Source: Fistulifera solaris (Eukaryota). From it: a stretch of DNA of 64,000 nucleotides. The stretch spans positions 248,001 to 312,000 of the forward strand of contig AP026172.1 in NCBI GenBank assembly GCA_030295235.1, read 5' to 3'. Shown here piece by piece: positions 1-20,705 of the stretch. Both the position numbers and the translations under genes were made by a program. The first letter of the stretch is position 1. Every line of letters begins with the position of its first letter. Under the pieces are notes generated by a model. The model was not told where the DNA came from. It did no database searches and saw nothing but the letters and a program-made list of their open reading frames with translations.

Positions 1-639
1 TCTCCGGGAATATTCCACCAACCACTACTCGGTCGTCTCCTACTTCATGTCAAGATTGGCGATCGAAACGCTGATTACAGCAATTCAGATTTTTGTTCTT
101 TGTCTATTGACCTACTACTTGATTGGTATGCAAGGGGGATTTGGTATTTTCTACACTGCAATATTTGCGCTGGCAATGTCAGGCACTGCACTGGGCGTGG
201 CCGTGGGATGCTCGACTGTGGATCCCAAGATGGCTATTGAACTATTGCCGGTAATGATTGTTCCGCAAATTCTTTTGCCGGCATCTTTGTTCAGATTGAT
301 TTGATTCCGAAGGTAAGAAAGATAACATAACTTGTCGCATTGCCTCACGATACCCTTTTCACTCATAATCGTTACTTTGTGTAGTTCCTGCGATGGGCCC
401 GCTATCTGTTTGCCCTTACTTATGCGCTTCGAGTCCTTGTAGTCAACGAGTTCGAAGATTGCGCGTCTGAAGAATTCTCGCAGTTGAATCCGCTCAATTA
501 TTGTCGTATAGTCCTCGAAAACACCGATTCAGATCCAGACGAGACATGGTGGAACTGGATTGTACTTGTATCTCTGTTCGGCTTTTTCCGTCTTCTCGCC
601 ATGCGAATTCTTCAAGTGAAAGCAATGAGATACTATTAA
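1..639 (+). CDS. ABCG/White-family ABC transporter, C-terminal transmembrane part (5'-partial)
   Basis: Reads REYSTNHYYSVVSYFMSRL...PQIL(F)AGIFVQIDLIPK|FLRWARYLFALTYALRVLVVNEF...WWNWIVLVSLFGFFRLLA, an ABC2-type TMD. GT-AG intron 313-384; stop TAA 637-639. One T is missing in the run near 273. Confidence 0.85.
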
Positions 640-12752: not shown

Positions 12753-15671
<2,919 letters not shown>

Positions 15672-16344
15672 GACAATTAATATTATTTAGTCATAGTTAT
15701 TACGTTTGAAGCCGAATTTGTGATTATTTTTAAATTAAAAGCCGGCTAGGGACTCGGAAAACCATTGTCGTTTTTTATCCATGAGAAATTATTAGTACAA
15801 ATATCGTCTTGGACGTCAACTAACTTACAAAAGAAACCAAATTGTCGTTTAACGGGTATCCTACTATCTAACGAGACTTTCTAGAGGGGCTTGCATGCCT
15901 CCCGGGAATCTAAATACAGCTCGAGTTTTGGATCATTTGCAATCATTTCAACAAAATCGTTCAAATGCAGCATCACCAGGGCCCAAAAAGTACGAATATC
16001 GTTGCTGCTGCTGGGACATATAATTGGGCGTTGGTAGAACTGCCTATCAGTATCGTGTTAGTTCTGTTAAGATGCGTTCTCTCTCTCTCTCTCTCTAGAG
16101 CCTCTATTTGTTGCCTTGACCTCGCATCATTGTGTCCGAGTTTTCATGACTGGATTTTTCATTAGTCATGAGTTATCTTGAGCCGCCTCTCGCGCCTCGC
16201 ATCCGCACTCGCATCGCATCTCGCATCGCCATCATCCTCAATCACTCGCCACCTCTTTTTTTTAATAACGTGTCATCGTCTTTGATCCTAATTATCTCTT
16301 TAATTACCGATCGATGTTTCAAACAAACTGAAAAAGGTGCTACA

Positions 16345-19300
16345 ATGAACTTTGAAACGAGCTCTACCGTGAGTAGTTCCGCTTTTTCCATGGCATCATC
16401 GAGCTTTCGCAGCCAGCCGACAACTTCTTCTCCACCGCAGTCGTTTAAGGACGCGAAACCGAAAACAACCGGGAGTGTCGGAATCATGCTAGTTGGAATA
16501 GGTGGATACAATGGGACTACTCTCTTAGCGGGTATTATGGCCCATCGCTTGAATATCACGTGGCGAGGACCTTTCGGAGATATACGGACTCCAAATTACA
16601 ACGGTTGCATCACGCAATTAAAGATGAAAGGCGGCGGTGTTGGCTACAAAGATCGCATCAAAGGACTCGCAGATGCTACAACTGCTGCCGTCGGTGGTTG
16701 GGTACGTCGTTTCTATCTTGCTTGCTTCGTTTGAAAAGTATTCTTTCTTTTTTGGGGGGGACCTCACAAAAATTGTGGCAGGATATTCGACCCACTAAAT
16801 GTGGAGATGCTCTTTTGGAACAACAAATATTGGATTATGATCTTGTGCGGCAAGTACAGGACGAGCTTAATAATATTAATATTTTCAAGGGGGCTTACGA
16901 CAGTCGCTTCATCGGTCCTTCGCAACACGCCACCGCGACACACATTCTCACCGAATTCGAGGCCCCGAACGCATCGGAAACCATAAAATGCATAAGAGCC
17001 GATATTCGATATTTTAAATGGAAAAATGGTGTAGTAGGACACACGACAGTCATTTGGAGTGCGAGCGTCGAACCCAACAGTGAATTGGTGGGAACGTGGA
17101 AAACGGTCGATGAATTGCTCATGGCGTTTGAACAAAGTGAATCCAAACGCGGTGGACCCATTCCGCCCAGTCTCATTTACGCTACCGCCGCTTTACTTGA
17201 AGGATGCTCTTTCATTAATGGTGGTTCACAGAACACATTGGGTTGTCCTGGTCTTATGGATTTGGCACGGCAGCAGCAAGGCGTTTATTGTCTGGGAACG
17301 GATTTCAAGGCGGGGCAGACAAAGTTCAAAACCGCGGCAGTGGAATATTTACGAACCATGGGATTGACTCCGTTAGTCATTGCCAGTTCGAATCATTTAG
17401 GCAATAATGACATGCGGAACTTGGCTTCGGCGCCGGATACTTCGAAAGCAAAACTGCGTGTCAAGCACGATATATTTGCTCCTTGGGAAGAAAACATTGA
17501 CCATAAAGTCAGTATCATGTACACGGAGCTTATCAATGATGAAAAACGAGACTTTGTCGAATATACCAGCGCTGGGTTCCTGGGACAGCTTCACACTATG
17601 GTGACTTACACACGGGCGTCGGATAGCGTTTTGTGCGTTCCTTTGATTCTTGACGGTGCAGTCTGGTGTGATTTCTTTTCTCGGTGCAGTTGGCCTTACG
17701 AAAAAGTCGCCAAGGCACTAGCGTATCTCTTTAAGGTACCCGAAGGCGCAGCGATGGGTGTCGATCCCGGATTTTTTGCGCAAATGCGAGAACTCGAAGC
17801 ACAAGTTATAGCAGCAAACGAGAGTCGCGGTTCCGGTAGAGACGCTGGTAAGCGGGTTCGGATCATTACAAATGAAAAGGCAAAGACGGAATGGTCGGTC
17901 CCTGAAGGAGGAGTTATTTGCGCCGGTCTCGCTTGCGTAGACATGCAACTAAACAACGCGACGGGGGGTGACGGCGGAGAAGGAATCGAGTCATTCCAAG
18001 GCGAAAAGAGTATTGGTGGTGGAAGTGTCAGTATGGCGTGCAAAACGCTCGCTCGTCTTTGTCACGGCGAAGCAGTAGATCCAGCACACGCTCCGCCTCG
18101 GGCAGTGTTGTCAAACATAGTTCCGATCTGTAAGATCGGTATGGATGGTACTGGAGACAAGTTGCTGAATTTGTTAGAAGCAACCGGTGAAACATGTCGG
18201 AATGTGAATGTGAGGCACTTGAAACACAATCGTGACCCTGAAGGCAGAACAGCTTTGTCTGTCTTGCCTATCTACCGTGACGGTCGACGCGGATGCTTCT
18301 TTGATGCGGCTTCGAACGTAACATTCTCAGCAATGGAAATCATTTCGGATCTCAAGTCTTTGAGGAATAGAGAAAATTCGTCATATGGTGCATTCCTCTT
18401 CGGCTATCCTCATTTACTCCCCAAACTTCAAGGTGAAGCACTAGCGCAAGTGCTAATTGAAGCTCGCAATGTTCTAGTGAACGGAGGAATATGCGCTGTC
18501 GATTTAAACGGTGTCCCTGAAGTCTTGTTCCAGCGAGACAAAAGAAGCGGTCTCCGCGCTGATATGAAAAGTGACCCCATTATCGGAGCTGCTTTGCAGC
18601 ACACAGACATACTTCACATGAATGTAAGTTATCATTTCACGAATACTTATGGCGTGCTACAAAGGAGAACCTGTACTCACGTGTGTTTGAATCACAGGAA
18701 GAAGAACTGTGTCTGCTTACCGGTTGTATATTGACAGGGAATACCGTACAGGACGACGGAACAATTCGAACAGCAGCCCGGTTATTTTTGGACGCAGGAG
18801 TAGGAATTGTTGTGGTGACCCGAGGTAAGCAGGGAAGCGTCGTATACTGCAATAGTAAACTGCGCTCCACTCTCCCGGCGTTGTGGGAGGGTCGCTCTGT
18901 AACCACACCTGCATCGGTGTTGGCGAGAGGGACGATTATTAACTCCAACGGAGCTGGAGATGCGTTTACTGCAGGATTCCTGTTGGCTGCTATGCTACGA
19001 CACACGGGTTTCGATGTAAAGAGTGACGCGGAAATTAGCAGTCCAGCGTCATCGTCGCGAGGAACTCCCACGAAAATTCCGGCAAAAAAGCAGTTGACTC
19101 CGTATGCCTTGTACATGCAAGAAAACTACCTTACTTTGAAAACGCAACTTCAAGGAGATAAGAAAGCAATATTTTCCAAGTGCCATGAATTATGGGAGAA
19201 TGAATCACCTGCTGTTAAGGCAATGTACGAACGTCGAGCCTCCGAGGAGAGGAATACAGCGAACCAACCCGAGGAAGTGAATTCTTCATTCGACTCCAAC

Positions 19301-19480
19301 CAAATGATGACCGACTCGAATAAAGATCGTACGTTATCATTGGAATCTGCCGCTACATTAGCCACTCTCATCGCCGCGCGCCACATTGATGTTTCCACTC
19401 GAGATGACTTGCATCTGGATTTGAACACATTACTCGAACATTGTCTCTTATTGCCCAACAATGGCCTTGAAGAGATTTAA
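16345..19480 (+). CDS. INO1: Myo-inositol-1-phosphate synthase fused to a PfkB/ribokinase-family kinase with an inserted HMG-box-like domain (~993 aa)
   Basis: MIPS motifs: [65 protein letters not shown]. PfkB motifs: [49 protein letters not shown]-like [13 protein letters not shown]...[16 protein letters not shown]. Introns 16702-16781 and 18624-18697. Confidence 0.9.
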
Positions 19481-19557
19481 CACAACAAGACACGATATTA
19501 CTTTTAACTGCTAAACTGATTTTTTTACTGCCGCCATTGTTCATTCTAAAATTAGCA

Positions 19558-20705
19558 CTACAATCCCGCAAAAGGATCGTCGTCCTGTTGTGACTGGGAA
19601 ATACTCGTACTGGCCGTATTACTACCGACAAATGGGTCAAAGCCGTTTTGAAATGGAGCTGCCGGTGCGGAAACTACGGCAAACGGATCATGATAAGGAG
19701 CTGGAACGGGAGCTGTTGTGAAATCCAGCAAATCATGACCTGCAAATGGATCTGACGGAGGTTGATGTGCTGGCGGGTACGTGGATAAAGGTGCCGCAGA
19801 AGTGGGTGGTGGTGGTGCCTGATACATGGGTTGTGGTGGCGCCGAATAGGCAATGGTTGCTGCAGAATTGGAATACAAGGATGGCTGTTGTGATACGGTT
19901 GCCGGATAGTTGTTGGGAGTTGATGATGATGGTGCTGTATTCGCCCACGGCATACCATTGTTATTCAATGGCGGCTGCAGCGGTGGCGGCGGCGATATTC
20001 GAGCTGGTTCTGTTCCTGCCGCACCCCAGGGAGGTACATCCGGATTAGCTGGCACTCCATTACTTTGTTCTGTAACACTTTCTCCACTCAATTCCGCCAA
20101 TTCCTTTTCTTTCTCGGTCCGTTTCCTTCGTATCTTTTCCACATCCCTTCGACAAATATCATAAAACGAGCGAATTTCTCGATCTGTCGGCAACCATTGT
20201 TGCGTATCTTCTAATTTTTCTAAATCGGCATACATTTTGACCCCAAATTCTTGTTTGTGTTTCGTGATTTGTCCTTGTACTATGCTCAATTCGGTGGTCA
20301 ATGCGACTTCTTTGCCCGCGTACGCGGTCGTTTTCCCCGCATTGGCCAATTTTTCTTGCCAATTGGTGGCGGGTGCACAAGAAGCGGCTTTTTGGACTCC
20401 CGTCAATTGTACTTTTGTTTCAATTTCCCAACTTTGATTTCGAGTGCGGCAATTTCCCGTTGTGCCGCAATGAAATGCGGTTGTATCGATGCCGTGAGCA
20501 AATCATCCGAACTGTAAAAACTGTGATGTTTCGCGAGCGGTGCCACATAATCATAGAGTTGTACACCAAACGCGTATTGTCGATTGGTCAGTTCGCGATC
20601 AATGAACATCAGATCTGCTTTGCATTTGGCTTGCATCGATGCTTGACCGGCTACTTGTCCAACGGCCGCGGCGCCTTTGATCACGGTCGACCAAAGAACG
20701 TCCAT
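19558..20705 (-). CDS. Hypothetical protein: duplicated helical module plus Pro-rich tail with DPF motifs
   Basis: Two related segments (RQYAFGVQLYD and HKQEFGVKMYA). Tail has several DPF motifs. Two ORFs are joined by a 1-nt frameshift at the run 20413-20416. Confidence 0.65.

Follow-up and report, generated by a model that had tools for sequence, protein, structure and literature searches.

We describe a gene of the diatom Fistulifera solaris whose single protein joins MIPS, a synthase of myo-inositol 3-phosphate, to a kinase of the PfkB/ribokinase fold. The gene lies in a stretch of 64,000 nucleotides (positions 248,001 to 312,000 of contig AP026172.1, GenBank assembly GCA_030295235.1, forward strand), which we call the window and in whose own numbering all coordinates below are given. 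It is one expressed gene of three exons, and we put at roughly 95% the probability that the MIPS-kinase fusion is a real and conserved protein, predicted to be bifunctional.

One expressed gene for both enzymes

The fusion gene runs from 16345 to 19480 on the plus strand, and its three exons are three open pieces that lie in different frames within the 64-kb window. Spliced and translated in silico, these pieces form a coding sequence of 2979 nt, or 993 aa, with 0 stops, to which they contribute 119, 614, and 260 residues; when intron 1 is left unspliced, a stop follows after 9 codons. Exon 1 (16345-16701, +, 119 aa) encodes a serine-rich N-terminus followed by the first part of the NAD-binding domain of MIPS (PF07994, E = 3.4e-12), and in the alignment its start position is the same as in the Fistulifera homolog P0004. 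Intron 1 (16702-16781, +) is 80 nt long, in phase 0, with the borders GTACGT..CAG. Exon 2 (16782-18623, +, 614 aa) carries the remainder of MIPS (PF07994, E = 5.9e-40; PF01658, E = 7.6e-20; PDB entry 9m53, E = 8e-44), the linker between the two domains, and the N-terminal two thirds of the PfkB domain. Intron 2 (18624-18697, +, 74 nt, GTAAGT..CAG, phase 0) separates it from exon 3 (18698-19480 including the TAA, +, 260 aa), which encodes the C-terminal third of the kinase, an HMG-like insert, the last kinase helices, and a conserved LEEI end.

Splicing of both introns is seen in contigs of public sequencing runs (X1 to X4) that we aligned to 16000-19800. One contig each from X2 and X3 exactly skips intron 1 (16701/2-16781, with the joint at 16700/1 to 16781/2, 80 nt, GT..AG), and a contig from X4 exactly skips intron 2, joining 18623 to 18698 (74 nt, GT..AG). 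The RNA nature of X2, X3, and X4 is inferred from these spliced contigs only, none of the three being on record as RNA, and they cover the region only in patches (9, 5, and 5 of 30 bins, respectively), with no single contig spanning the gene. The contigs of X1 cover the introns together with their flanks and so behave like DNA. An earlier reading made from the letters of the window alone (hereafter the sequence-only reading) had proposed two canonical introns and a single frame of about 993 aa, and the translation and the spliced contigs confirm this structure.

The X1 contigs also differ from the window at 16 listed sites in exon 2 (17334-17717 and 18179-18275). Because 15 of these 16 differences are synonymous, we conclude that the fusion frame is under purifying selection. 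Taken with the 94% identity between the window's protein and the full-length Fistulifera solaris protein P0004, the differences suggest a second haplotype or a homeologous copy of the gene. Two further differences between an X1 contig and the window are both non-coding: a 1-nt deletion at 16256, in the 5' leader, and a 1-nt insertion of G at 16753, within a G-run of intron 1.

A gene model that unites two enzymes might be an artefact in which two adjacent genes have been merged by read-through or mis-assembly. We found nothing in favor of this; some database entries hold one half only, but these start or end at exon borders or at internal methionine codons, as expected of partial gene calls. 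The junction between the domains lies inside a single open exon: the inter-domain linker (17802-17912, +, residues ~460-496, about 37 in all) is in open frame and wholly within exon 2, in agreement with the earlier placement of the junction at about 17750-17920 inside one exon without a stop. A 283-nt contig of X2 (17679-17961), a run that also yielded a spliced contig, spans this junction. The linker has a low predicted local distance difference test score (pLDDT) in the model of a homolog and is conserved in the alignment, with the pattern KRVRI..EK.TEW from 17850 onward. About 100 independent database proteins, other diatoms' among them, and complete MMETSP transcripts likewise have both halves. 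Junction, contig, linker, and distribution together refute a merged gene model for practical purposes, and the claim of a single polypeptide stands.

A eukaryote-type MIPS half

The MIPS domain (16477-17801, +, residues ~45-459, interrupted by intron 1) is delimited by Pfam, by PDB alignments, and by invariant columns. Its matches lie above the Pfam cut-offs (PF07994, 46.9 and 138.1 bits against 25; PF01658, 71.5 bits against 27), and its nearest solved relatives in a PDB search are all eukaryotic: 9m53 (E = 8e-44), 1vko, 9f2k, and yeast 1jkf (E = 1.8e-36). Eight motifs follow one another on the plus strand: GIGGYNG, the NAD-binding GxGGxxG (16495-16515), WSASVE (17055-17072), NGGSQNT (17217-17237), DFKAGQTK (17301-17324), NHLGNND (17391-17411), NDEKR (17535-17549), SDSV (17619-17630), and YLFKVP (17724-17741). 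Counting positions in the printed alignment with yeast shows that D320, K322, K327, N354-N355-D356, K369, K373, K412, and D438-S439 all have conserved equivalents in the fusion, whose C-terminal LFK motif aligns with LLK of Caenorhabditis elegans. All of these are invariant in the family alignments, as are the aligned equivalents of the catalytic set, which includes yeast K489; we take the catalytic roles of these positions (K369, K412, K489, D356, and D438) to be those given in the yeast structural literature. By these residues and domain matches, the MIPS half is classified as a eukaryote-type myo-inositol-3-phosphate synthase with the checked catalytic residues kept, and it is predicted to be active.

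The sequence-only reading had remarked that three of the MIPS motifs are atypical. All three, GIGGYNG, WSASVE, and NGGSQNT, are present as quoted, but as oddities of the fusion two of them fall away: stand-alone diatom MIPS paralogs have both WSASVE and NGGSQNT, which are therefore traits of the clade. Only the replacement of asparagine by tyrosine or alanine in GxGGNNG is peculiar to diatom fusions.

A PfkB/ribokinase-fold kinase half

The kinase core (17913-19003, +, residues ~497-835, interrupted by intron 2) is recognized by Pfam, by the fold of a homolog, and by the invariants of its family. Along the plus strand it contains a 10-residue motif (17913-17942), GGGS (GG, 18015-18026), DGRRGC (18279-18296), GYPHLL (18402-18419), HMNEEE (NxxE, 18615-18706, split by intron 2), and NGAGD (GAGD, 18947-18961), of which GG, NxxE, and GAGD are invariant in alignments of 53 and of 14 sequences. 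Pfam finds PF00294 in the exon 3 piece only (E = 2.9e-7, 30.6 bits against a cut-off of 25.8), and the kinase part of exon 2 by itself has no PfkB match at E ≤ 0.1; in the full-length homolog P0004 the PfkB match extends over residues 512-826 (E = 1.1e-11, 45 bits). A search for a PfkB match had been proposed as a check on the kinase half, and the exon 3 match, above its cut-off, answers it.

The fold was modeled with AlphaFold2 (AF2) on the homolog P0013, a kinase-only partial open reading frame (ORF) of 590 aa that is 57% identical to the window's kinase part. With an alignment of 53 sequences, the model reaches a pLDDT of 76 and a predicted template modeling score (pTM) of 0.72. Foldseek returns 396 PDB matches for it at E ≤ 0.001, the best being Escherichia coli YdjH (3h49, E = 1.5e-15), with which VIA-align superposes 297 of 307 residues over model positions 41..579 (Z = 30.2, root-mean-square deviation 2.7, 25% identity); the next folds are pseudouridine kinase, ribokinase, KDG kinase, and adenosine kinase, at Z scores of 26-29. 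The C-terminal helices and the conserved LEEI tail (19334-19477, +) fall within the aligned span 41..579. On this model, the kinase has a complete PfkB/ribokinase fold, of which the helices that follow the insert are a part. The MIPS core motifs and the complete PfkB fold with an intact GAGD that had been read from the window are thus borne out by Pfam, by the alignments, and by the homolog's predicted fold.

An HMG-box-like module within the kinase

The GAGD helix is separated from the last PfkB helices by an HMG-box-like module of three helices (19085-19264, +; protein residues 863-922, exon 3 residues 130-189) with disordered linkers on either side. The sequence-only reading had missed this module, which is found in diatom fusions only. 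The window's insert matches the Pfam family HMG_box (PF00505) with E = 1.6e-5 and 25.7 bits, against a cut-off of 25.4. The same family is matched at E < 0.01 in 6 of the 9 homologs that were scanned, 3 of those 6 above the cut-off, and it is flagged in the precomputed Pfam column for 20 of the 120 listed database matches; a profile of the family reaches the HMG boxes of TOX and NHP1 (E = 0.007-0.01). An AF2 model of 19061-19297 (79 residues, 47 homologs) has three helices with pLDDT >90. Foldseek gives no match to this model at E ≤ 0.001, and all 47 of the rows shown are HMG boxes (probability 0.54-1.0, E = 0.2-3.3, template modeling score (TM) 0.57-0.71), the best being box A of HMGB1 (E = 0.21, probability 0.99, TM 0.64). 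The insert could be aligned in 47 of 47 homologs, with 69-84 residues in each and invariant P, Y, E, K, F, C, W, and E positions.

Classical DNA-binding HMG boxes are strongly basic. The core of the insert has a median net charge of -1 and a pI of 5.9 across 48 sequences (the window's own has +2 and 8.8), and a basic DNA-binding surface was not found. Because the core is close to neutral, unlike that of the basic DNA-binding boxes, binding of DNA by the module is doubtful, and its charge makes a module for protein contact or localization more likely than a classical DNA binder.

Fused and stand-alone forms and their origin

A search with the window's kinase part returned 201 proteins, 120 of which were listed. 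MIPS and PfkB Pfam domains occur together in at least 100 proteins, namely 100 of the 120 listed (counted by hand from the domain column), and the named holders of the fusion are Fistulifera solaris, Amphora coffeaeformis, Chaetoceros, Nitzschia inconspicua, and a Bacillariaceae sp. Two MMETSP transcripts called complete carry both halves (P0063, 1045 aa; P0118, 1065 aa), and the automatic name given to the fusion at JGI is 'myo-inositol-1-phosphate synthase/sugar/nucleoside kinase (ribokinase family)'. By this record of database proteins, both pennate and centric diatoms have kept the MIPS-kinase fusion. When 1.84 billion representatives were searched exhaustively with a profile, 294 proteins came up at E ≤ 0.001; among the 25 that were scanned for domains, four (P0186, P0189, P0194, and P0134) are MIPS-PfkB fusions without the HMG-like module. 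P0186 belongs to the ochrophyte Phaeothamnion confervicola, so that the HMG-less fusion is present in at least one other ochrophyte. Searching with each half, as had been proposed, therefore maps the fusion as widespread in diatoms, with the HMG-less form in Phaeothamnion, and it brought out diatom stand-alone paralogs of both halves that the sequence-only reading had missed.

Stand-alone relatives of the kinase, about 370 aa long, were found in Fibrocapsa and in Porphyridium, where the protein is annotated 'putative sugar kinase YdjH'. A profile built from eight stand-alone kinases found 164 more proteins, 120 of them listed, with Amphora, Thalassiosira, Cyclotella, Discostella, Stephanodiscus, Trieres, and Odontella among the named diatoms and Porphyridium, Chondrus, Rhodosorus, and Pyropia among the named red algae; none of these 120 listed relatives is named as an inositol kinase. 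Stand-alone and fused kinases both carry the motifs GYPHLL, G-R-G-C, LHAN..EE, and NANGAGDAF, and on this likeness we assign the kinase to a PfkB subfamily of red algae and ochrophytes.

With the MIPS half as query and lengths limited to 186-594 aa, a search for stand-alone MIPS gave 379 proteins at E ≤ 1e-10, the top ones being fragments of fusions. Below these come diatom MIPS that stand alone, about 475 aa long and with 55-58% identity to the fused half; they occur in Cylindrotheca (P0356), Seminavis (P0357), and Thalassiosira profunda (P0365), and other named holders are Nitzschia sp., several Thalassiosira, and Corethron. The stand-alone proteins (P0327-P0398) end in a tail, GIITxEQAxxL, that MAFFT aligned to RVRI..EK.TEW of the fusion linker, and this tail may be a remnant of a shared linker.

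The history of the two halves was explored in quick trees (IQ-TREE, LG+G4), unrooted and supported by the Shimodaira-Hasegawa-like approximate likelihood ratio test (SH-aLRT) only. The MIPS tree has 116 rows, made up of 71 fused proteins, the window's own among them, plus 45 stand-alone ones taken as the first of 63, with 47 unlabelled fragments left out; a branch with 98% support parts the diatom fusions from all 45 of the stand-alone diatom MIPS together with five HMG-less fusion rows. One sequence in the stand-alone diatom MIPS clade, the 480-aa P0335, is labelled as from a Myxococcota metagenome-assembled genome (1.6-kb contig), and it is probably a mis-binned eukaryotic contig. The kinase tree has 132 rows: 9 of 59 fused kinases, selected by hand and by a filter for completeness, and 123 labelled stand-alone, with 4 fragments left out. 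Here a clade with the named red-algal and many unnamed rows is separate from the ochrophyte rows, and the fused (100%) and stand-alone (96%) kinases of diatoms form sister groups, joined at 96%; Phaeothamnion, P0194, P0189, and Fibrocapsa fall outside this joint group. Two rows labelled stand-alone lie inside the fused kinase clade, P0068, which carries the HMG insert, and P0125, and both are probably partial ORFs of fusions. From these trees, which are unrooted and contain several long branches, we hypothesize that an old ochrophyte fusion was duplicated in diatoms, where one copy would have remained a fusion and acquired the HMG module while the other would have split into two genes.

Possible functions of the fusion

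The two enzymes have been fused or paired over a long evolutionary span, and we infer from this that they act in one pathway. The kinase is thus a candidate to act on inositol or an inositol phosphate, a proposal to which we would give even odds. The fusion would then serve as the entry module for an inositol-phosphate route that is soluble and independent of lipids: its MIPS half would turn glucose-6-phosphate into myo-inositol 3-phosphate (Ins3P), and its kinase half, with ATP, would add a phosphate to the inositol ring or maintain one there, either converting Ins3P to an inositol bisphosphate (InsP2) as the consecutive step or converting free myo-inositol to an inositol monophosphate (InsP) by salvage, while stand-alone MIPS would serve housekeeping inositol and phosphatidylinositol (PI) synthesis. 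We slightly prefer the step from Ins3P to InsP2, since fusions usually join consecutive steps of a pathway and a separate MIPS can serve the needs for free inositol. For plants, the passages of PMC4844270 on these steps have MIK making InsP1 and name only a candidate for the kinase that converts InsP1 to InsP2.

Several observations weigh against an inositol-dedicated and fully active fusion. In the MIPS half, the serine of DDxKSGQTK (yeast S323, of the phosphate loop) is alanine across the whole algal clade, and the first asparagine of GxGGNNG is tyrosine or alanine in the diatom fusions, changes by which MIPS activity could conceivably be altered. In the kinase half, the structural model stems from the homolog P0013 and not from the window's own protein, and the folds nearest to it belong to enzymes that phosphorylate sugars, sugar acids, or nucleosides. 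A PDB profile search yields only generic ribokinase (best 3ry7, E = 2.2e-5) and adenosine kinase (E = 2.8e-4) matches, the best NCBIfam match is the N-domain of iolC (37.7 bits against a cut-off of 300, in the ATP half only), and the ESM Atlas gives generic PfkB clusters only. The lysine and asparagine of ribokinase GGKGANQ, which we take to be sugar contacts, are replaced in the alignment, where the fusion reads GGGSVSM. Lastly, stand-alone copies of both halves exist, and for that reason function does not depend on the fusion.

The closest rival to a conversion of Ins3P to InsP2 is the one advanced by the sequence-only reading, in which the fusion combines de novo synthesis with salvage: the kinase would be a myo-inositol kinase giving Ins3P, the same product as that of the MIPS half, like plant MIK/lpa3 or Thermococcus myo-inositol 3-kinase (MI3K). 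The evidence neither supports nor refutes this proposal, which we regard as rather unlikely. MIK and MI3K are PfkB-family enzymes, the kinase here is a PfkB whose catalytic motifs appear intact, and its joining with MIPS argues for a substrate related to inositol; the role of MIK itself is treated in the same passages of PMC4844270. The particular likeness to MIK or MI3K is not borne out, since no specific similarity to any inositol kinase appears in NCBIfam, the PDB profile search, the fold comparison, the ESM Atlas, or the names of the listed relatives (0 of 120), and MI3K is absent from the 51 PDB sequences at E ≤ 10 and from the 50 best fold rows, an absence that shows nothing either way. 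Fusions, moreover, usually link steps that follow one another in a pathway, not two routes to the same product. Alternatively, the kinase could supply the substrate of its partner by phosphorylating a hexose, glucose or fructose, and so feeding hexose-6-phosphate to the MIPS half. PfkB kinases include fructokinases, the 10-residue motif at 17913-17942 resembles the G-E-R-x-F-x-F of fructokinase-type PfkB proteins, and NCBIfam gives weak matches to fructokinases and hexose kinases (22-31 bits), but these fall well short of their cut-offs and cover only the ATP-binding half. Glucose-6-phosphate is in addition an abundant central metabolite, for which a dedicated supply kinase is not obviously needed, and we find this role improbable.

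It is equally improbable, in our judgment, that the halves are metabolically uncoupled, with the kinase acting on an unrelated sugar, sugar acid, or nucleoside and the fusion serving co-regulation or localization, perhaps through the HMG-like module. The nearest solved folds, YdjH, pseudouridine kinase, and ribokinase (Z = 28-30), would fit such a substrate, as would the stand-alone copies of both halves in diatoms and the occurrence of the kinase alone in red algae; however, the fusion has been kept across diatoms and another ochrophyte class with both active sites apparently intact, which is hard to explain without a shared function. The most specific form of the preferred Ins3P to InsP2 reading goes further: the fusion would mark the GYPHLL PfkB subfamily of red algae and ochrophytes as the inositol-phosphate kinase of the soluble route, converting Ins3P to InsP2 directly at MIPS, and in diatoms this site of Ins3P and InsP2 production would be anchored through the HMG-like module to chromatin or a nuclear partner. 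In all its parts this is a long shot, which we rate slightly below even the two proposals just called improbable. If true, such tethering would couple the production of inositol phosphates to gene regulation.

Neighboring genes

Upstream of the fusion gene, 12753-15668 (+) encodes a protein of 972 aa whose start resembles a signal peptide and which contains two DUF7467 domains (E = 1.7e-61) and long Pro-Val/Pro-Ala repeats, and its product looks like a secreted or cell-surface protein. Downstream, a convergent ORF at 19558-20502 (-) encodes 314 aa rich in proline, glutamine, and alanine, with no Pfam family at E ≤ 0.01, and ends about 78 nt from the stop codon of the fusion gene.

Novelty and significance

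MIPS is normally a stand-alone enzyme. The domain families of the fusion are known already, and the fusion itself is present in public databases under automatic names. Full-text literature searches, which did not cover supplements, where gene lists might mention it, found no paper on a MIPS-PfkB fusion: PMC10276504, as far as its matching text goes, names MIPS only in a figure legend and a list of abbreviations, the matching portion of PMC4182424 mentions only a generic ribokinase, and a text search of PMC6973038 found nothing relevant to the fusion. As far as we have seen, then, no description exists of the MIPS-PfkB architecture, of the HMG-like insert, or of split paralogs alongside the fusion. 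A diatom-wide fusion that exists beside its stand-alone halves predicts a role in inositol metabolism for an uncharacterized algal subfamily of PfkB kinases. The first soluble steps of inositol phosphorylation are poorly assigned, and the fusion offers a testable candidate for them in major marine primary producers. It is also unusual in itself for a metabolic kinase to contain an inserted HMG-box-like module.

Comparison with known systems

Compared with the eukaryotic MIPS of known structure (9m53, 1vko, 9f2k, and 1jkf), the fusion has both Pfam domains and about 300 alignable residues (E = 1e-36 to 1e-44), and it keeps the GxGGxxG, DxKxGQTK, NHLGNND, D-x-K, DS, and C-terminal LxK motifs. 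It differs in lacking most of the N-terminal arm of about 60 residues, in place of which it has 44 serine-rich residues, in its only moderate identity, in reading WSASVE, NGGSQNT, and alanine in KSGQTK, and in the attached kinase. Stand-alone diatom MIPS share WSASVE, NGGSQNT, and DFKAGQTK with it, whereas they have no kinase, keep GxGGNNG, and end in the GIITxEQAxxL tail (67 of 73 near-complete MIPS-only rows).

Plant MIK/lpa3 and Thermococcus MI3K belong to the same superfamily as the kinase half and have a plausible link to the same pathway; general searches, with no direct comparison to MIK or MI3K among them, turned up no specific similarity. With the PfkB kinases of known structure (YdjH, 3h49 and 3in1, nearest, then pseudouridine kinase, ribokinase, KDG kinase, and adenosine kinase), the kinase half has in common the predicted complete fold and the GG, NxxE, and GAGD motifs. 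It is set apart from them by marginal sequence similarity (best PDB E = 2.2e-5), by large inserts, by the fusion to MIPS, and by its own subfamily motifs GYPHLL, G-R-G-C, LHAN..EE, and NANGAGDAF. The insert, finally, resembles HMG boxes such as HMGB1 box A (4qr9), HMGB3 (2eqz), and UBF box 5 (2hdz) in its predicted three-helix fold and its conserved proline, aromatic, and tryptophan positions; it departs from them in its weak Foldseek E-values, in its near-neutral to acidic charge, and in sitting inside an enzyme domain.

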